Notes: a model not told the origin generated them from the sequence alone. A stretch of 64,000 nucleotides of DNA from Parachlamydiales bacterium (GCA_015661075.1 JACVQJ010000003.1:28623-92622), one strand, 5' to 3'. Shown: positions 39,896 through 64,000, counted from the stretch's first letter. Translations and numbers: made by a program.

Positions 39896-40558
39896 ATGGA
39901 CATAGTCCTTTGCAAGGCAAGTAGAATATTTAATTGTAGGTTTTGTATCAAAGAAATATTGGAATTACTACAGATTGCAGACCGTCTTCTCGGCCCTGGA
40001 GGTTGTCCCTGGGACCGGGAACAAACGTTATTGACCCTGCAAAAATATCTGTTGGAAGAGACGCACGAGCTCATTGAGGCTATCGATCGGGATGATTCCG
40101 GGCAAATTGTTGAGGAGATGGGCGATGTATTGTTTTCTCTCATTTTTATAGGAAAATTGGGTGAAAAAGCCAATCGATTTACATTCAACGATGCGGTTCA
40201 GTGTGTTTGTGAAAAACTGATTCGGCGCCATCCCCATATTTTTGCAGGCGTGAGCGTGAATGGCGTCGATGACATCGTTCAGAACTGGGAAGCCATCAAG
40301 AAGAAAGAAAAAGAGCGGAAAACGATTTTTGAGGGGATCCCTCCCACATTGCCGATTTTGGCCCGGGCGCAAAAAATGATTGAAAAGCTTCAGCGCCACA
40401 AAAGTTCATTGGCACCCATCGGATCTGGCCAGAAAGTTTCTGAAGAGGAAGTGGCGAGACGTTTATGGGAGTTGCTGGGACAGGCCCAAAGTTCAGGGGT
40501 CGATGCCGAGTCAGCCTTGCGCCGTTATTGTCAGCAGATAAAAAACACCGGAGAGTGA
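39896..40558 (+). CDS. mazG: nucleoside triphosphate pyrophosphohydrolase MazG
   Basis: ..GGCPWDREQTLLTLQKYLLEETHELIEAI..EEMGDVLF..RRHPHIF... The true start may be TTG at 39959; only 34 bp separate ATG 39896 from the divergent gene. Confidence 0.85.
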   Translation: MDIVLCKASRIFNCRFCIKEILELLQIADRLLGPGGCPWDREQTLLTLQKYLLEETHELIEAIDRDDSGQIVEEMGDVLFSLIFIGKLGEKANRFTFNDAVQCVCEKLIRRHPHIFAGVSVNGVDDIVQNWEAIKKKEKERKTIFEGIPPTLPILARAQKMIEKLQRHKSSLAPIGSGQKVSEEEVARRLWELLGQAQSSGVDAESALRRYCQQIKNTGE

Positions 40559-40645
40559 TCCGCGGCAAAAACTGAATCCTTAAGGCTGCTACCTTCCGGT
40601 CCTGACCTGGTTCAGATTGCTTATCCCGCGAGTTCCCCGGTGAAA
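40548..40645 (-). ncRNA. ffs: signal recognition particle RNA (4.5S/SRP RNA)
   Basis: The minus strand reads ..cgcgggataagcaatctgaaCCAGGTCAGGACCGGAAGGTAGCAGCCttaaggattcagtttttgccgcgg... The capitalised block is almost identical to the E. coli 4.5S domain IV core (CCAGGUCAGGUCCGGAAGGAAGCAGCC) with its GGAA tetraloop. Flanking strands pair (tctgaa/ttcag, cgcgg/ccgcg). Ends are approximate, and the 3' end overlaps the mazG stop. Confidence 0.8.
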
Positions 40646-56448: not shown

Positions 56449-57764
56449 TTTCGATTTATGCGGAGCGCTGGCAACGGTGCTCTGCGAACTAATTTTCTCA
56501 CAATCGCTTCGACAGGCTCTGCAAAAGGCGCCTGATTGGTTTCAATGGCATTTTTTACCTGTTTGACGCTGGACATGACCGTTGAATGGTCCCGATTGAA
56601 TAGGCGCCCGATTCCCTGAAAAGGCATTTCGAGCAGTGTGCGGCATAAAAACATCGCGATCTGGCGCGGCTGTGCGAATTCGCGCATCTGGGATTTTCCC
56701 GTCAAATCTTCCGTTCGGATACCGAAATGGACCGCAGTCTGTTTGATCACTTTATCGATCGTCAAAACCGATTCCGATTCTTTTTCCAAAAGATCTTTCA
56801 AAACCCGCTCGACATGAGGGATTTGAAGGTTTTTGGGGCATCTATGCGCGAGAGCGTGAAGCGCTTCGATCGATGCGTGGCTTTTGCTGGTAAAACGCAG
56901 AAGAAGAAAATCAATGAGTTCAGTGGAAGGGGACAGATCCAGAAATTTAGATTTTTGGTTCAGGATTTGCTTCAGTGCGGCCGGATCCGGAGGATGGAGA
57001 CTCAATGAAATGCCCCATTCAAAACGGCTGATCAGGCGCTGTTCGATATCCGGGAGTTGGCCGGGTGTGTCGTTGGCGCTCAAGATGATGGGTAGATCAA
57101 GGGTATGCAGAGAGTTGAAGGTGTGGAAGAATTCTTCTTGCGTGGCACTTCGGCGCGCCAGGAGATGAATGTCGTCGACGATCAGCGCGTCGATGGCCCG
57201 GTAAGCGTTGCGAAAATCCTGCATATGGCCCAACCGGATCGCCTGGACGACATGATCAGTAAAGGTCTGCGCGCTGACATAGAAAACCTTCTTGCCGAGC
57301 GCTTGCAGCGAGAGAGCAATTCCCATCAGCAGGTGCGTTTTGCCTGAACCGGATGGGCCGGAAAAAAATACCGGATTAAATCCGCATTTTCCCGCGCGGG
57401 CGATTTCATTGGCTGTTTCATATGCGATCAGGTTGGCGCTCGATGGCAAAAACTGATCGAGGCTGTACTCCTTTTCGAGTGGATCGGGATTGATTATAAA
57501 AGTCAGCTCGGCTGTTTGCTGTTTAGAAATGATCCGCGTTTTTTCGAAATGAATTTTGATGGGGCGCTGATTGTTATTGCAGAAATTAAGCGGCATCAAG
57601 GGCCGGATCTGCTCTTCGAACCAGGACTGCTGGAAGGGCGTTGCCTCCAGAAAAATATTGGCGGCATCAAATCGCACGACCTTCATGGGTCTCAGCCACT
57701 GGGCCACTACTTCAGGGCCCAGTTTCTGTTCCAGCTTTGACAGAAGATCATCCCAAGCTTTCAT
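56445..57764 (-). CDS. dnaA: chromosomal replication initiator protein DnaA
   Basis: AAA+ Walker A GPSGSGKTHL, ..LIVDDIHLL.., and a C-terminal DNA-binding domain (..FNRDHSTVMSSVKQV..). Start moved to MKAWDDLLSKLE (57764), giving an ATGA overlap with the yidC stop. Confidence 0.93.
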   Translation of the reverse strand: MKAWDDLLSKLEQKLGPEVVAQWLRPMKVVRFDAANIFLEATPFQQSWFEEQIRPLMPLNFCNNNQRPIKIHFEKTRIISKQQTAELTFIINPDPLEKEYSLDQFLPSSANLIAYETANEIARAGKCGFNPVFFSGPSGSGKTHLLMGIALSLQALGKKVFYVSAQTFTDHVVQAIRLGHMQDFRNAYRAIDALIVDDIHLLARRSATQEEFFHTFNSLHTLDLPIILSANDTPGQLPDIEQRLISRFEWGISLSLHPPDPAALKQILNQKSKFLDLSPSTELIDFLLLRFTSKSHASIEALHALAHRCPKNLQIPHVERVLKDLLEKESESVLTIDKVIKQTAVHFGIRTEDLTGKSQMREFAQPRQIAMFLCRTLLEMPFQGIGRLFNRDHSTVMSSVKQVKNAIETNQAPFAEPVEAIVRKLVRRAPLPALRINRN

Positions 57765-59662
57765 TTTTTCACAGTTAACGCTTCTTCTTTCATTTTTTTC
57801 GTCAAATACCATTGCTGGAGGATCCCGAGAAGCGTGGATGAAATGAAGTAGATGTTCAATCCCGAGGGAAATCCGTAAAACATCACGGTAAAGACGATCG
57901 ACATGATATTGCCCATCATTTTTTGCTGTTTTTGGGAATCCGACAGGTCCTTCTCGTCCTTGGGCATTTTCGATGTCATTTTTTGCTGCAAGAACATGGT
58001 CGCGCCCAATATGATCGGGAGCAGGTGGAATTCATTTCCGATCATGAAGATCGGATAGCCCCAGCTAAAAAGAACGTCCGGCGCGGCCAGATTGTCGATC
58101 CATCCGGGAATAAACGATGCCCCTCGCAGCGGAAACGTCGATTTGAGCAAATAGAACATTCCGATCAAAAACGGCATTTGCAAAAGCATTGGAAAGCAGC
58201 CGCCGAAGGGATTGATGCCCTCTTGGCGATAGAGATTCATGACCTCCAGCTGGCCTTTTTTTGGATCTTTTTTAAACCGGTCCTGAATGGCTTTGACCTT
58301 GGGCGCCATTTCCTGCATCCGGACGGTCGATTTGATCGACCAGTTATTGAGCGGATACATCATCAATCGAAGCGCGATCGTCAGCAAAATGATCGAAAAA
58401 CCCCACGAGCCGGATATGGTATAAAACAGCTTCAAGAGCAAATAAAGAAATTTTGAGAAGGGCTGGGAGATAAAAGAGAACCATCCCTGGATGCTTTGCG
58501 CATCCGCGTAATCGGGATTATATCCTTTCAGCGGGTCGTCATAGAGTTCGTCCAGTTCTTTTAAGAGAGTGTCGTCGAAGGGACCGGCAAAAACACGAAA
58601 GGTCTGCGCAGCTCCGCTTTTTAAGGGCAAATAGGTCGAGTATCCCGGGAATTTATCCGCCGGATAGGGTTGGTAGGCGGCGTCGATGACCGTCATGCGG
58701 GTAGGCACCGTGGCGCCAGGGATTTTTGCCGCACGGTAACCGGAGGCGATATCAGTCAATGGATCCATGATCAGGCCGAGAAATCCATTCGAATTGCTGA
58801 TCCAATGCGGCGATACGGAAGTGACGATCATGACGGGGTTTTTGTCAGACAGATCGATCGTCTCGACATCGGCTGTATTGTTGCGCATGATCTGGTAGCG
58901 GAGCATTGGGCTGAAGCTGCCGCTGAGCATTTCTGCTTCCGGCACTCCGGAAGAAAGCCATAATCCGCGCGCGTCGCCCTCGATTTGTATGCTCGCTTCA
59001 AAGCAGTAAGGACCATTTCGCTCTTCCGGAATAGTAAATGTCTTGATGATTCGGCGCTGGGCCTGGCTCGCTTCAAACTGGATTAGATTTTTTTCAAAGC
59101 GCGTGACCCTGTATTCCAGCGATGATATTTCGGAATCGTCGCTCACGATGTTCATGGCGTAATACTGAGGATCTAGCAGATGACGGACAGTTCCGTCCGC
59201 TTGATAGATGGAGCGGCGGAGCAGAGGATAGTAGCCGCCGATCGTTCCTTCGGATATGTTGGAAGAACCCGCTTGATAGGCCGGCTGCGATGGAAAATGG
59301 GCATTGGCCGGATCGTCTTTCACGATCAGGCGGTCAAATCCGATCTCTTTGACAAGGCTTTTGGATGTTTTTCCGGTTTTCAGAGGCAGGTTGATTTCGG
59401 CCAGACTTCCGCCTCGCGATGAAAATACCAGCTGCTGATATTCGTTTTCCAAAACGTAAAGTTGTTCCTCGCCTTTCGCTGTATTTTTCGCTGCCAGTCT
59501 TTGGGTTTGCTGCACAACGGGGGCTTCCGTGGCCACTTGTTGCGATGTCTGTTGTGGCGCCGGCTTTGAATCTTTGTTGCCCCACTCGAACCAGGCTTGA
59601 ATGCCAAAGAAGGCAAGGCTGACGCAGGCGATGAAAAGCAAAGAGCGTTTGTCCATGATCAA
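57761..59662 (-). CDS. yidC: membrane protein insertase YidC
   Basis: 633 aa: an N-terminal TM, a large periplasmic domain and the conserved C-terminal 5-TM core (..MQEMAPKVKAIQDRFKKDP..LYRQEGINPFGGCFPMLLQMPFLIG..). Confidence 0.93.
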   Translation of the reverse strand: MIMDKRSLLFIACVSLAFFGIQAWFEWGNKDSKPAPQQTSQQVATEAPVVQQTQRLAAKNTAKGEEQLYVLENEYQQLVFSSRGGSLAEINLPLKTGKTSKSLVKEIGFDRLIVKDDPANAHFPSQPAYQAGSSNISEGTIGGYYPLLRRSIYQADGTVRHLLDPQYYAMNIVSDDSEISSLEYRVTRFEKNLIQFEASQAQRRIIKTFTIPEERNGPYCFEASIQIEGDARGLWLSSGVPEAEMLSGSFSPMLRYQIMRNNTADVETIDLSDKNPVMIVTSVSPHWISNSNGFLGLIMDPLTDIASGYRAAKIPGATVPTRMTVIDAAYQPYPADKFPGYSTYLPLKSGAAQTFRVFAGPFDDTLLKELDELYDDPLKGYNPDYADAQSIQGWFSFISQPFSKFLYLLLKLFYTISGSWGFSIILLTIALRLMMYPLNNWSIKSTVRMQEMAPKVKAIQDRFKKDPKKGQLEVMNLYRQEGINPFGGCFPMLLQMPFLIGMFYLLKSTFPLRGASFIPGWIDNLAAPDVLFSWGYPIFMIGNEFHLLPIILGATMFLQQKMTSKMPKDEKDLSDSQKQQKMMGNIMSIVFTVMFYGFPSGLNIYFISSTLLGILQQWYLTKKMKEEALTVKK

Positions 59663-59819
59663 ATACCTCTAGGTTCCGACCACTTTATCAAATCGATCCA
59701 AACATGGAAAGGGGATATGCATTGCAAATGGTTTTGAATAAATTACTATCTTTTGTTAGCATGCGATTAAGCAGCAAATAAACTTTGGTTGAATTTAATT
59801 ATTAATATCGAAGGTGTGC

Positions 59820-60959
59820 ATGTCTAAATTAAAATCTGTGTGTTTGAATATGATCGTGAAAAATGAGAGCAAGGTCATTCGGCGCTGTATCCATTCGATC
59901 CGGAGTCTGATTGATTATTGGGTCATCGTGGATACCGGTTCGACGGACGGAACGCAGGAGATCATCAAAGAAACTCTGAAAGATATTCCCGGAGAGCTTT
60001 ATGAGCGTCCCTGGAAAAATTTTGAGCATAACCGCAATGAAGCGATGCGGCTGGCGTATCCAAAGGCCCGATATCTGCTATTTATCGACGCCGATGAAGT
60101 ATTAAAGGCACCGAAGAATTTTTCGCTCGGGACGCTCGACAAAGATATCTTCCTAATCAATGTCCAGCTTTCGAGCGGAACGATGTTTACCCGTCAGTTC
60201 ATGATCGGCACGCGCATTCGATGGTTTTGGAAAGGCGTCGTTCATGAGCAGGTATATACAGATGTCAAGAGCACGACCCATCGCTTTTTGGAAGACGCCT
60301 ATCTATATGCCAGCGATGACGGAGGGAGAACAGGCCAGGATTCCAGCGTAAAATTTCTCCACGACGCTGAAGTGCTCGAAGAGGCTCTCAAAACCGATCC
60401 TCGCAATAGCCGCTACGTGTTTTATCTGGCCAACAGTTATTCCCACGCAAAAAAACTGGATCTGGCTTTGCAGAACTATGAAAAAAGAGTTATCATGGCA
60501 GGCTGGGATCAGGAAGTCTTCTATTCTCTCTATTGCATCGGCCGGATCCAGAGTGAGATGAATATGCCACCCGAGGTATTCATCAATAGTTATTACAAAG
60601 CGTATCGCTATCGGACGACTCGAGCCGAGCCGCTCTTTTGGATCGCACATCACTACATGGAAATCAAGGACTACGAAGCTGCGTACGAAGTTCTTGTCAA
60701 GGCGGTCGAAATTCCGCTTTCCAAAGACGCCATGATGGTGGAGCACAGCATTTATGAGCATGCTTTGAAATGGATGTTTGCCGACTGTCTATTTTCATTA
60801 AAAAAATACGAAGAGGCCGAAAAAATATATCAAGAGCTTATGGCCAAGCCCAAATTGCCGAAAGAAGTTCGCCCGGTCATGATGCAGAATATGAAGCAGA
60901 TTCAAAGATATCTGCAAAAGACCAGGAAATCGGGTGAACTCCCGGAGCTTGGTTTTTAG
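59820..60959 (+). CDS. family 2 glycosyltransferase fused to TPR-like helical repeats
   Basis: ..VCLNMIVKNESKVIRRCIHSIRSLIDYWVIVDTGSTDGT.. and ..FIDADE.. indicate a GT-A fold. The C-terminal half is TPR-like. ATG 59820 is preferred over the listed GTG 59814. Confidence 0.8.
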   Translation: MSKLKSVCLNMIVKNESKVIRRCIHSIRSLIDYWVIVDTGSTDGTQEIIKETLKDIPGELYERPWKNFEHNRNEAMRLAYPKARYLLFIDADEVLKAPKNFSLGTLDKDIFLINVQLSSGTMFTRQFMIGTRIRWFWKGVVHEQVYTDVKSTTHRFLEDAYLYASDDGGRTGQDSSVKFLHDAEVLEEALKTDPRNSRYVFYLANSYSHAKKLDLALQNYEKRVIMAGWDQEVFYSLYCIGRIQSEMNMPPEVFINSYYKAYRYRTTRAEPLFWIAHHYMEIKDYEAAYEVLVKAVEIPLSKDAMMVEHSIYEHALKWMFADCLFSLKKYEEAEKIYQELMAKPKLPKEVRPVMMQNMKQIQRYLQKTRKSGELPELGF

Positions 60960-60969
60960 ATATGGCTTT

Positions 60970-62415
60970 TTACATTTCTGGTTTAAAGCTGCATTCCGTT
61001 AGAGGAATCAATTTGGTTCGATTCCAGAACTTGAATCCTAAGTAAAACATCATAAAAATTGGCAATCCAATATAAGTTCCGATCAAATTGTCGAGGTTGA
61101 CATTATGAAGGATCCATGCATCGAATTGTTGTCCCGCGATGACGAAAACGCATAAAACGAGCGCAAAGATCGAGCCAAACGGAAAGCCTTTGGCAAGATA
61201 GGGCAAGTCGGAGAGTTTGCGGCCTTGCGCCAGGTATGCTTTGCGGAAGCGGTAGTGGCAAAGCGCGATGCCGAACCATGCAATAAACCCGGTTAAGCTC
61301 GAAATATTTAATAGCCAGACAAACAATTGCCCGCTTCCGACCTGGGATGACAAAAATACGGCTGCGCTAATAATTGAGGTTAACACTAAAGCAGCAATGG
61401 GAATGCCATGTCTTTTTGACGTGGTCATTAAAAACCGGGGTGCATTTCCTTCTCGGGCAATATGCCACAATGTTCGGGCGGCTGTGTACATGCTCGCGTT
61501 GGCTGCAGAAAGAATCGCTAGCAAAATCACAATCGTCATGGTGACCTGAGCAAAATGCAAGCCGGCCATCTGCAAAATAATCGTAAAGGGGCTGGCTCCG
61601 ACATTGGTGGTGCTCGCGACAATCAATAGAGGGTTGTTATAAGGAACCAGAAAACTGATGATACCCATCGTCAGGATGTAGAATATAACAATCCGCCAGA
61701 AAACATTGCGTACTGCTTTCGGAATGCTGGTCGTCGGGTCTTTGGTTTCTCCGGCGGTGATTCCAAAAATCTCCGTGCCCTGGAATGAAAACCCCGCAAT
61801 CATCAATACGCTCATAAAACCGACCCAGCCAGAATGAAACGGCGCGTCATCGATAGTCCAGTTGGTCCAATCGAGGGGTTTTTGATGTCCGACGATCCCT
61901 AAAATCACGAAGATGCCGATCAAGATAAACAAGATGACGGCGGCTACCTTGATGCCTGAAAACCAATATTGCATCTCGCCGTAAAATGCGACGGGTACGA
62001 TGTTCATTAAGACAATCAATACGAAAAAGATCACTGTCCAGGCGAAAAATGAAATCTCCGGAACCCAGGTGTGTATGATCAGCGCTGCGGCAGAAAGGTC
62101 CACCGCTGTGGTCACAGCCCAATTGAGCCAGTAATTATACGACATCGCAAATCCAAAGGCCGGATCAACGAAGCGAGTCGCGTAGTCGCAAAAACTGCCT
62201 GTTGTGGGAAGCAGCGTGGACATTTCGCCCAGGCTCGTCATTAAAAAATAGACCATCATGCTCATGATCAGGTAGGCAAGTAGAGCACCTCCGGGCCCCG
62301 CCGTATGAATGGCGGTGCCGCTGGCGACAAAAATGCCTGAACCGATCGAGCCGCCGATAGCGATCATCGCGATATGACGCGCGCTAAGCCGTCGATGCAA
62401 CGAGTTACATTCCAT
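60970..62415 (-). CDS. APC-family amino acid permease, LysP-like
   Basis: ..RRLSARHIAMIAIGGSIGSGIFVASG.. closely parallels the E. coli LysP N-terminus (..RRELKARHLTMIAIGGSIGTGLFVASG..). 12 TM helices. I prefer the start at MECNSLHRRL (62415), because 62416-62645 looks like a structured leader. The listed start at 62496 remains possible. Confidence 0.85.
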   Translation of the reverse strand: MECNSLHRRLSARHIAMIAIGGSIGSGIFVASGTAIHTAGPGGALLAYLIMSMMVYFLMTSLGEMSTLLPTTGSFCDYATRFVDPAFGFAMSYNYWLNWAVTTAVDLSAAALIIHTWVPEISFFAWTVIFFVLIVLMNIVPVAFYGEMQYWFSGIKVAAVILFILIGIFVILGIVGHQKPLDWTNWTIDDAPFHSGWVGFMSVLMIAGFSFQGTEIFGITAGETKDPTTSIPKAVRNVFWRIVIFYILTMGIISFLVPYNNPLLIVASTTNVGASPFTIILQMAGLHFAQVTMTIVILLAILSAANASMYTAARTLWHIAREGNAPRFLMTTSKRHGIPIAALVLTSIISAAVFLSSQVGSGQLFVWLLNISSLTGFIAWFGIALCHYRFRKAYLAQGRKLSDLPYLAKGFPFGSIFALVLCVFVIAGQQFDAWILHNVNLDNLIGTYIGLPIFMMFYLGFKFWNRTKLIPLTECSFKPEM

Positions 62416-62478
62416 ATAAAATCCAGTAAAAAAATATATGCAGAAAAGTCCCCAAAGAAATGGACGACTCGAATCGAT

Positions 62479-62645
62479 GCGAAGGGCTCCACGCATTGCG
62501 TGACAGTGTTAATCCTTTCGCAATTAACACTACGGAGCTGTCTAATAATAAACTGATATGATTTCGGCGCTTATCTCCTGGACACTGCTTCCATGGCGTT
62601 GGGATGCCTCGACAGTGCTTGTTAGTAAGCGCACCTCTTCTGCGG
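62479..62645 (-). promoter_or_regulatory. candidate lysine riboswitch (L-box-like) leader of the LysP-like permease
   Basis: The minus-strand RNA gcAGAAGAGGUGCGCuuacuaacaAGCACUGUC..cagugu..uaaGCGCCGAAAuc..GUGUUAAUugcgaaaggAUUAACACUGUCACGCAaugCGUGGAGCCCUUCGC shares the order and sequence of L-box core blocks as I remember them: AGAGGUGCG, GCUGUC, GCGCCGAAG, and hairpin + ACUGUCACG + hairpin + GAGAGCC. P3 would be unusually short. Confidence 0.55.
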
Positions 62646-62651
62646 TCACTG

Positions 62652-62681
62652 ATTCTACGTAAATGTTGGGATTTTGTTCAA
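62652..62681 (-). promoter_or_regulatory. sigma-70-type promoter for the riboswitch-like leader
   Basis: On the minus strand: TTGAAC (62681-62676), 18 nt, TAGAAT (62657-62652). This places the transcript start just before the AGAGGUGCG block. Confidence 0.5.
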
Positions 62682-62792
62682 AATATTTAAAACCTGGCAC
62701 AAAAAAATAGAAGCCGCTGCATCAATTTAACAATTCTTGACCATAAGTTAGGGATTAGTTAAACTTGTCGCTTTATTTAAAGGAATGATTTT

Positions 62793-64000
62793 ATGGCGGC
62801 AACTAATCAGTATTTGCAAGATAATTTACACTATAGACCTCTGAGTGCACATCTTGGAAGGGCAACCGTTTGGACAGCCACTGAATTACAAAAAAACGCA
62901 TCTGATTCGGCATGGCATGGAAGGATTGTCACTGTCCTCTCAAAAACTATTGTAGCCGTTGCCGCGCTCGCTTGCATACCTCTATCTTTAATTGAATTAG
63001 TAAGCAGCTTCGTTTTGGCATCAATCGCTGGTTGTTTCAATAAAATCCTTTTTGATAACAGGAGCGAATTCCTGCAAAAGCATACGCTTAAGCTCCTCTC
63101 TTTTTCTATACATAGCGCGCTCGGAACGGTAGCTCTTGTGTTCTTGTTCTATAAGAACTGCCGGGGGCTTAACTTGAAGTGTCACACCCTTTCAGCAGTT
63201 GTCGATCACAGCATCCATCTCGGCATAGCGATCTTTGTTCAGGCCACATATGGAGCTTACTTAGACCGCCAGGCGGGAAGGGATGAAAAATTATTTGCTA
63301 CTCGAATCATCAATTTATTCAGAGACAGTCATCCCAGATTGATTCAGGATCTCAGGAGACAAATTGAACGCGATGCAGGAATTCTCCTTTCCGTCTTAAG
63401 AGAAAGGATTGTAAATGCACCCGCTGTGAGCACCTATCTCGGGCAACATCTTGAAGCGCGAAATTTCATAATGACTTTTGACCTTGGCACGTTTATCTCC
63501 TCCGTAGAATATCGCCGGCAGGCGGTTGGAATCGTTGGAAGTGTCCTTACCGATTTACAACTGGCCTCTCCGATGGGCGCCCAACAGTGGGATTTAAACC
63601 AACATAGACCCGATGAATCGCGGTATCAAGATCATCTTGCACAGCTCATCAAAGAAGCATTCCTCGAAATTCATAACAAACCCGATCTTTGGCACGGTTT
63701 AGACCAGGAAGAACTGCCGGGTAATGAACTTTTGGAATGTATGGATGCGACTACATTTACACCGCTTGCAGCAGCGGCGGCCTATCGGGAAATTCTTGAA
63801 GATGGGATGTATTGCCCTGAACAGTTTGACGGCAATCTCGCTCAGTACAACGGACGAAGAGAACAAATTATTGAAGCCAAACAGATTGTTGGAGGGTTAA
63901 CCCAAGCTCAGAAAGATCAGCTCTACCAAAAAATCATTAGAGGATCCGATTACAATGTCGATAATCAATGTATTCAAGAGGCTTTTTTGAAAATCAGCGC
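62793..64000 (+). CDS. Inc-like hypothetical membrane protein, 3' end outside the window (not in the ORF track)
   Basis: My translation from ATG 62793 stays open to the window end (>400 codons): MAATNQYLQDNLHYRPLSAHLGRATVWTATELQKNASDSAWHGRIVTVLSKTIVAVAALACIPLSLIELVSSFVLASIAGCFNKILF... About 44 polar residues are followed by a bilobed hydrophobic segment (aa 45-82), the layout of chlamydial inclusion-membrane proteins. Further hydrophobic stretches follow. Confidence 0.6.
   Translation, partial: MAATNQYLQDNLHYRPLSAHLGRATVWTATELQKNASDSAWHGRIVTVLSKTIVAVAALACIPLSLIELVSSFVLASIAGCFNKILFDNRSEFLQKHTLKLLSFSIHSALGTVALVFLFYKNCRGLNLKCHTLSAVVDHSIHLGIAIFVQATYGAYLDRQAGRDEKLFATRIINLFRDSHPRLIQDLRRQIERDAGILLSVLRERIVNAPAVSTYLGQHLEARNFIMTFDLGTFISSVEYRRQAVGIVGSVLTDLQLASPMGAQQWDLNQHRPDESRYQDHLAQLIKEAFLEIHNKPDLWHGLDQEELPGNELLECMDATTFTPLAAAAAYREILEDGMYCPEQFDGNLAQYNGRREQIIEAKQIVGGLTQAQKDQLYQKIIRGSDYNVDNQCIQEAFLKIS

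Follow-up and report, generated by a model that had tools for sequence, protein, structure and literature searches.

A 64,000-nucleotide stretch of DNA from a metagenome-assembled genome (MAG) of a Parachlamydiales bacterium, phylum Chlamydiota (GCA_015661075.1 JACVQJ010000003.1:28623-92622; hereafter the window, with coordinates on its minus strand unless marked otherwise), carries upstream of a lysP-type lysine permease gene a structured leader that is homologous to the lysine riboswitch, or L-box. The leader keeps the junction core of this family and most of its helices, and the helices covary among related chlamydial leaders; it has lost the basal helix of P3 and the kissing contact between loops L2 and L3, and the pair that closes P4, which in characterised L-boxes contacts the bound lysine, is A-U in place of G.U. 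On balance we lean towards the view that this is a recently disabled, or much weakened, lysine sensor, such that expression of lysP would be largely unregulated by lysine.

The homology is evident in a covariance search with the Rfam models, in which the window leader matches the lysine riboswitch family RF00168 over its full length (model positions 1-182) with 52.1 bits, the gathering score being 30, and with an E-value of 5e-12 in a local search and 9e-11 when the whole 64-kb window is searched (Table 1). A covariance model specific to the chlamydial clade (R1), for which the window leader was itself part of the training set, scores the aptamer at 139 bits. The 5' strand of P1, GC-A-GAAG, is followed by the J1/2 core AGAGGUGC, the P2 arm by the J2/3 junction GCCGAAA, and P4 directly by ACUGUCACG, comprising J4/5 and the adjoining strand of P5, and the element closes with GGAGCC CUUC GC at 62490-62479. 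The junction strands proper (J1/2 AGGU, J2/3 CGA, J4/5 G and J5/1 AGCC) are identical to those of the orthologous leaders. The helices are likewise largely preserved, with 4 of 4 pairs in P1, 8 of 9 in P2, 3 of 4 in P2b, 9 of 10 in P4 and 6 of 6 in P5, and for P2a 4 of 6 pairs in the MAFFT register or 6 of 8 standard pairs when read from the Rfam alignment. The GAAG/CUUC pairing of P1 is invariant in all nine clade copies compared, and the L4 sequence CGAAAG is common to most clade copies, L089 and L004/L084 being different. A preliminary description of this region, made from the sequence alone, had proposed an L-box-like leader by likening these blocks to known examples; all of them, together with its TTGAAC-18-TAGAAT promoter-like site, lie on the minus strand where it had put them, and the assignment is borne out by the significant RF00168 match and by covariation in orthologous leaders, both of which it had named beforehand as tests.

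The closest LysP proteins (68-84% identity) all derive from Chlamydiota MAGs or from unbinned metagenome contigs, and their leaders were examined with both the Rfam and the R1 models. An intact L-box is present at 11 distinct lysP loci (L002, L003 (=L085), L004, L005, L009, L082 (=L083), L084, L089, L165, L166 and L167), which are ordinary new members of the family. The orthologous chlamydial leaders score 59-90 bits with RF00168, and with R1 the scores are 139-171 bits inside the clade as against 28-86 outside it. When the L-box secondary structure is laid over a MAFFT alignment of nine distinct copies (alignment A2), 90.3% of the cells are paired, compared with 35-44% if the partners are slid by 1-3 columns; 22 of the 46 pairs have changed on both sides, and in 500 shuffles no measure attained its observed value. 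Loops L2 and L3 of the clade are likewise complementary and covary between subgroups (UCCAA/UUGGA, CCAAAA/UUUUGG, CCCAAG/CUUGGG and UACUAAA/UUUAGUA). The comparison of orthologous lysP leaders that the preliminary description had suggested thus finds the helices both conserved and covarying. One further contig, L081 from a Logan assembly, has a leader identical in sequence to that of the window and is possibly not independent of the reads behind the source MAG.

Elsewhere in the same clade the element is reduced or absent. Neither the Rfam model nor R1 found an L-box at 13 chlamydial lysP loci (L001, L006, L007, L008, L010, L011, L014, L086, L087, L088, L164, L168 and L169), two of which, L164 and L086, have a promoter directly 5' of the Shine-Dalgarno (SD) sequence. 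Upstream of an 81%-identical lysP, a relic at L163:1375-1440 (GCA_023264535.1, JAHFLY010000001.1) retains the promoter, AUAGAAGAGGU and the beginning of P2, lacks about 105 nt, and resumes at the P1 3' strand, UUUCGCAUUGG, and the platform. The nearest relative, L162 (84% amino acid identity), lies on a 1.6-kb contig that begins inside P5 and so shows only the last 22 nt of the aptamer together with the platform; the next-nearest relatives comprise the loss at L164, the relic at L163 and intact copies. A neighbour-joining tree of the permeases, which has no bootstrap support, places the chlamydial genes in a single clade in which L-box-bearing and L-box-less genes are interleaved, the early branch L089 carries an L-box, and the window gene groups with L162 and then with L164. 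Because presence and absence are interleaved in this manner, the simplest reading is that the L-box was ancestral in this chlamydial lysP clade and has been lost repeatedly.

Against this background the window copy stands apart at three points, which emerge from a wider set of 61 lysP-linked L-boxes drawn from Chlamydiota, Lactobacillaceae, Thermoactinomycetaceae and metagenomes. First, the basal helix of P3 has 6-7 of its 7 pairs in 60 of the 61 and 2 of 7 solely in the window, where the P3 arm folds at -2.5 kcal/mol compared with -5.1 to -13.0 kcal/mol in the orthologues. Second, the P3 loop of the window is not complementary to L2, the modelled L2-L3 duplex amounting to -0.5 kcal/mol as against -5.8 to -17.8 kcal/mol in the orthologues; this is the weakest of all 61, the other 60 ranging from -1.5 to -17.8 kcal/mol. 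Third, the pair that closes P4 is G.U in 60 of the 61 and A-U solely in the window. Eight orthologues share 57 invariant alignment columns; the window departs from them at five, among which is the first nucleotide of P4 (column 121), G in the orthologues and A62531 here. Two intact copies found later, L166 and L167, keep the G.U pair, and by eye their L2 and L3 loops are complementary. The preliminary description had flagged the shortness of P3 as a caveat, and the arm is indeed short; as harmless variation it is hard to accept, given that the 60 others have a basal helix of 6-7 bp and a loop complementary to L2. A fourth candidate lesion was dropped: the 5' internal loop of P2 reads AAGCA in place of the AGUA of the sarcin-ricin, or loop E, motif, which serves with an A-rich L4 in P2-L4 docking, and this was not counted, as the motif is not constant within the chlamydial clade (L165, L002, L089 and L004).

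The altered contacts are ones for which structural and mutational data exist. By the Rfam alignment, where the consensus UGG at the P3/P4 boundary stands over UAG in the window, and by its place as the first P4 pair in all alignments, A62531-U62505 corresponds to G114.U140 of the Thermotoga maritima aptamer and to G144-U170 of Bacillus subtilis lysC. In the T. maritima structure G114 pairs with U140, closing P4, and hydrogen-bonds lysine (table, PMC5049679). In B. subtilis lysC, where G144-U170 is the equivalent pair, the G144A variant has a Trm1/2 above 13 mM lysine, compared with approximately 0.15 mM for the wild type (derived from 0.3 mM being a 2-fold increase), and with lysine ethyl ester the same variant gives a Trm1/2 of 0.85 mM (PMC3384330). 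The L2-L3 interaction is in turn important for folding and regulation (PMC3082890). The functional lysine sensor implied by the preliminary description is thus called into question on two counts, namely the missing P3 and L2-L3 contact and the A, rather than G, at the first base of P4 in the pair that contacts the lysine carboxylate.

Two complementarities peculiar to the altered region were also noted. The L2 loop sequence UCCCAA (within 62605-62598) is complementary to the platform sequence UUUGGGGA at 62456-62449(-), which could be a relocated kissing partner of L2 or a chance match, L162 having no match to UUUGGGGA. Similarly, GCUCC at 62538-62534(-), formerly the 3' strand of P3, is complementary to GGAGC at 62490-62486(-) of J5/1, and the two are paired in the minimum free energy (MFE) structure of the whole leader; this pairing, if real, would lock the junction core into a fold that does not bind.

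Whatever the state of the aptamer, its output has to pass through the expression platform, which in the clade extends over 56-70 nt from P1 to the AUG and consists of 62-78% pyrimidines. A terminator scan of the window and of L082, L003, L009 and L167 detected no terminator-like site between aptamer and AUG, in agreement with the earlier impression that no terminator stem precedes the lysP start; the search for a hairpin followed by a U run returned only long irregular hairpins of -5 to -12 kcal/mol (rough values, since the scan forced non-canonical end pairs) with no U tract directly after them, and intrinsic termination was discarded as a candidate. Rho-dependent control through a rut site found no support either, the platforms being short (only 56-70 nt) and rich in U, not in C. 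With no intrinsic terminator present, translation initiation is the most likely point at which the intact copies act, possibly with a contribution from Rho, although the support for this is weak. In ensemble calculations with the aptamer closed or open, accessibility of the SD and AUG rises modestly on opening in four of nine orthologues (L009, L082, L084 and L165; shuffle fractions 0.01-0.17); in the window the folding model gives identical values for the closed and open states (SD 0.55/0.55, AUG 0.04/0.04), and across the leaders the closed-state accessibility is not below that of shuffled platforms (mean z +0.10). Candidate alternative pairings fare no better than composition-matched shuffles, the mean z being -0.15 if the pyrimidine tract is paired with J5/1 GGAGNN and +0.20 if it is paired with the 5' P1 strand. 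In the MFE structure of the whole window leader P1 is replaced by a 9-bp pairing of 5' GCAGAAGAG with CUUUUCUGC (62448-62440), and pairing of the 5' P1 strand with the tract is computed at -13.9 kcal/mol, a value which 7% of shuffles also reach; the apparent covariation of such helices, as judged by eye, was rejected as a reflection of pyrimidine-rich composition, and RNAalifold found no consensus structure across the platforms. Translational control, as raised in the preliminary description, is hence plausible by elimination, while the folding tests give no demonstration of it.

We would describe the window element as a degenerate variant of the lysine riboswitch family rather than a canonical member, because its score, core sequences, helices and genomic context are those of the family, whereas P3 with the L2-L3 contact and the G.U contact are not. 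In the mechanism that we propose, the leader, a true L-box descendant, would have a promoter of its own and form the 5' part of the lysP mRNA. In the intact copies, binding of lysine in the five-way junction would be expected to stabilise P1 and the core and thereby shut down expression of the importer, most probably at the step of translation initiation. The element would be ancestral to a clade of environmental Chlamydiota lysP genes with many losses, and the window copy would represent an early stage of loss, in which P1, P2, P4, P5 and the core of the junction persist, whereas the basal helix of P3 and the L2-kissing loop have gone and the carboxylate-contacting G.U has become A-U. Such an aptamer is predicted to respond to physiological lysine not at all or very weakly, and lysP would then be expressed at a level set by the residual leader structure and largely independent of lysine.

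A number of observations weigh against a disabled sensor. Outside P3 the mean identity of the window aptamer to its orthologues is 0.68, the values for the others being 0.65-0.74, and identity at third codon positions in the adjacent gene is only 0.38-0.46; of the clade-invariant columns the window keeps 52 of 57. From P5 to the AUG the leader is 80% identical (64 of 80 positions) to that of L162, compared with 58% at third codon positions, and by eye two hairpins differ from L162 by compensatory changes, GAGUC/GACUU corresponding to GGGCC/GGCUC in the platform and CAUAUA/UAUAUG to UGCAUAA/UUAUGCA at the start codon. This pattern points to purifying selection on the window RNA for most of its history, so that the damage would be recent or the RNA would still do something; and it is because the RNA outside P3 is still conserved that our preference for a disabled sensor is a cautious one. 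In addition, the G114-equivalent position is only '>80% conserved' among L-boxes (PMC3384330), and natural non-G variants therefore exist. Both the G144A and the L2-L3 measurements were made in vitro on the transcriptional switch of B. subtilis lysC and are carried over to the window by analogy, and the L2-L3 mutants were reported as impaired, not necessarily dead. The loss of ligand response in the window RNA is accordingly something that we deduce from its sequence and from that analogy.

Taken together, such observations could instead describe a fully working lysine OFF-switch, in which, despite the short P3 and the A-U pair, lysine would stabilise P1 and shut off translation of lysP or Rho-dependent read-through. 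We consider this possible, if the less probable account. An Rfam score above the gathering threshold, intact junction strands, L4 and helices P1, P2, P4 and P5, and conservation of the platform and of the aptamer outside P3 well above third-codon-position levels are all what such a switch would show, as is the compensatory change that separates the start-codon hairpins of the window and L162; natural L-boxes do vary at the G114 position (PMC3384330), and lysP would be a sensible target in an obligate intracellular bacterium. Each of the three lesions is, however, unique among the 61 lysP-linked L-boxes and absent from all 11 intact copies of the clade, in B. subtilis the same G-to-A substitution eliminated the response to lysine (PMC3384330), the L2-L3 interaction is important for folding (PMC3082890), and the modelled accessibility of SD and AUG in the window is the same whether the aptamer is closed or open.

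It is rather improbable that the window holds a natural functional L-box variant that dispenses with P3 and the L2-L3 contact, carries A-U at P4, and senses lysine through a remodelled fold (for example with L2 UCCCAA pairing to UUUGGGGA) or senses a carboxyl-modified, lysine-like metabolite. A variant re-specified for a ligand other than free L-lysine, such as a carboxyl-modified lysine derivative, seems to us, if anything, more improbable still: B. subtilis G144A does discriminate against lysine and responds to lysine ethyl ester at 0.85 mM (PMC3384330), and the remainder of the window aptamer is still conserved, but the variant occurs in one genome only, the gene it would regulate is still an ordinary lysP orthologue, the disappearance of an entire tertiary contact (P3 and L2-L3) resembles damage and not tuning, and the clade is documented as losing the L-box repeatedly. 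That the similarity is fortuitous, or that the leader is a structured RNA of other origin than the L-box, for which the atypical P3 alone would speak, is ruled out for practical purposes by the RF00168 match with full model coverage, by core strands shared with the orthologous leaders, by helices that covary across the clade and by the syntenic position 5' of orthologous lysP genes.

Table 1. Features of the lysP leader and gene in the window, with positions counted from the first nucleotide of the 64-kb stretch
Feature	Position	Strand	Remarks
Promoter-like site (predicted)	62652..62681	-	-35 TTGAAC 62681-62676, 18-nt spacer, -10 TAGAAT 62657-62652; 9/12 consensus matches
Aptamer homologue, lysine riboswitch (L-box)	62474..62647	-	RF00168 52.1 bits, full model
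P1 5' strand	62637..62643	-	GAAG 62640-62637; possible GC extension 62643-62642 across bulged A
P2-P2a-P2b arm, 66 nt	62567..62632	-	GCGCUUA/UAAGCGC around GCACUG/CAGUG and GGC/GCC; -24.2 kcal/mol; helices intact
L2 loop AUCCCAAC	62605-62598	-	apex of P2 arm
P3 region, degenerate	62532..62563	-	only a 5-bp AU-rich hairpin, GUUUA-uuau-UAGAC 62553-62540, left
P4 arm, 27 nt	62505..62531	-	L4 CGAAAG intact; closing pair A62531-U62505
P5 hairpin, J5/1 and P1 3' strand	62479..62503	-	P5 62503-62489; AGCC 62488-62485; CUUC 62484-62481; GC 62480-62479
Expression platform, 63 nt	62416..62478	-	pyrimidine-rich
Platform hairpin GAGUC..GACUU	62470-62446	-	
Platform tract CUUUUCUGC	62448-62440	-	complementary to 5' GCAGAAGAG
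CAUAUA pairing with UAUAUG	62440-62435 with 62418-62413	-	in the platform; covers the start codon
U7 run	62434-62428	-	
lysP-type lysine permease gene, 481 aa	60970..62415	-	start ATG 62415; end coordinate includes the stop codon

The gene downstream, which begins 59 nt after the end of the aptamer, encodes an APC-family permease (PF00324 at 7.8e-130), for which the best NCBIfam model is the LysP-type PRK10836 with 558 bits, under its 735-bit cut-off; an identical 481-residue protein is deposited at NCBI as 'MAG: lysine transporter [Parachlamydiales bacterium]', so that the LysP-like character attributed to it beforehand holds. The start at ATG 62415 agrees with a Logan gene call that gives the same 481-residue product, and its first residues, MECNSLHRRL, align with the orthologous N-termini MSKNTLHRRL and MQNNTLRRRL. 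ATG 62496, the start of the longest open reading frame (ORF), had been considered as an alternative; it does lie inside P5 as had been proposed, and its use would add 27 codons overlapping P5, P1 and the platform, such that, given the orthologue alignment and the gene call in favour of ATG 62415, it is an artefact of ORF extension. The SD-like element serving ATG 62415 is a weak UGGA at 62425-62422.

The promoter-like site is, by consensus scan, the only one of its quality on the minus strand within 62200-63000, and the transcript is predicted to start a few nucleotides 5' of P1. In alignment A1 of the orthologous leaders a -35/-10 pair lies at equal distance 5' of AGAAGAGG, the consensus promoter scan being passed by the window and L009 only. 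An exact 8-nt repeat, ATCCCAAC, occurs in the promoter spacer at 62672-62665(-) and in the L2 loop at 62605-62598(-), probably by chance in a region of about 300 nt.

In comparison with known systems, the window element has in common with the RF00168 L-boxes of the B. subtilis lysC and T. maritima asd leaders the five-helix junction, the strands AGAGGUGC, GCCGAAA, ACUGUCACG and GGAG, a P2 arm with apical L2, a P4 arm with an A-rich L4, P5 and a short P1, and, as there, it forms the 5' leader of a lysine-related gene. It departs from them in having no P3 basal helix, no L2-L3 kissing complementarity and an A-U pair closing P4; its loop E sequence reads AGCA for AGUA (variable in the clade), its P1 comprises only 4 bp (6 with the bulge), and, unlike the Bacillus transcriptional switches, it has no intrinsic terminator. 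For the intact chlamydial copies the best available model is the lysC riboswitch of Escherichia coli, a terminator-less L-box that acts after transcription initiation on a Gram-negative mRNA; work by Caron et al. in 2012 reportedly describes translational control coupled with RNase E cleavage and a defined SD-sequestering helix, whereas in the chlamydial leaders no conserved sequestering helix is demonstrable.

The lysP/gabP-linked lysine riboswitches of Firmicutes (PMC5584792) involve the same COG0833-type LysP family and the same order of aptamer and gene, and strong L-boxes occur in Thermoactinomycetaceae (L015, 126.6 bits), which are among the nearest LysP relatives outside the chlamydiae; the present elements differ in their host phylum, Chlamydiota, in a sequence flavour of their own clade, as reflected in the R1 scores, and in a patchy distribution with repeated loss. 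The closest counterpart of the altered P4 pair is the engineered B. subtilis lysC G144A (Wilson-Mitchell, Grundy and Henkin 2012, PMC3384330), with the same change from G.U to A-U at the carboxylate-contact pair; that, however, was made in the laboratory as a single substitution in a transcriptional L-box that is intact elsewhere, whereas the window copy is natural and also lacks P3 and the L2-L3 contact.

A 2017 survey of 2785 genomes lists lysine riboswitches in Firmicutes, Gammaproteobacteria, Thermotogae, Fusobacteria, Actinobacteria, Tenericutes and a few others, and not in Chlamydiae (PMC5584792), and riboswitches are rare in Chlamydia, the phylum being nearly devoid of them (Barrick and Breaker, PMC2258182). 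According to the preliminary description L-boxes were not known to have been reported in Chlamydiae, and likewise none turned up in the searchable literature, though automatic Rfam or GenBank annotation may already exist. The present leaders place a lysine riboswitch in Chlamydiota, where the gene it regulates is the importer of an amino acid that these intracellular bacteria take from their hosts. They also provide a natural series of decay, from the intact switch to the lesioned copy of the window, the internally deleted shell of L163 and the plain promoter of, for example, L164 and L086. Such series are rarely documented for riboswitches, and this one could show the order in which an aptamer breaks down once regulation has become dispensable. 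The window copy is, moreover, the natural equivalent of the laboratory specificity mutant G144A. The riboswitch class itself is ordinary, and the interest of these leaders, which we regard as moderate, lies in the extension to the phylum, in the decay series and in this equivalence.

The 377-nt intergenic region that holds the aptamer is shared with a divergent ORF of 446 residues, which runs from about 62793(+) to beyond 64000 and has no Pfam match; a promoter-like sequence, TTGACC-17-TAAACT, is located on its strand at 62737-62765(+). Downstream of lysP lie a GT2 glycosyltransferase with TPR repeats at 59814-60959(+) and a long YidC of 633 residues at 57761-59662(-), and the L081 Logan contig shows the same two lysP neighbours. 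Apart from RF00168, the only family to exceed its Rfam threshold anywhere in the window is the bacterial small signal recognition particle (SRP) RNA (RF00169, 51 bits) at 40543-40642(-). At L011 an SRP RNA is found just upstream of the lysP orthologue, and downstream of that gene a long palindromic stretch at L011:4431-4557, with sub-threshold plant-miRNA-like Rfam matches on both strands, suggests a large inverted repeat or hairpin.

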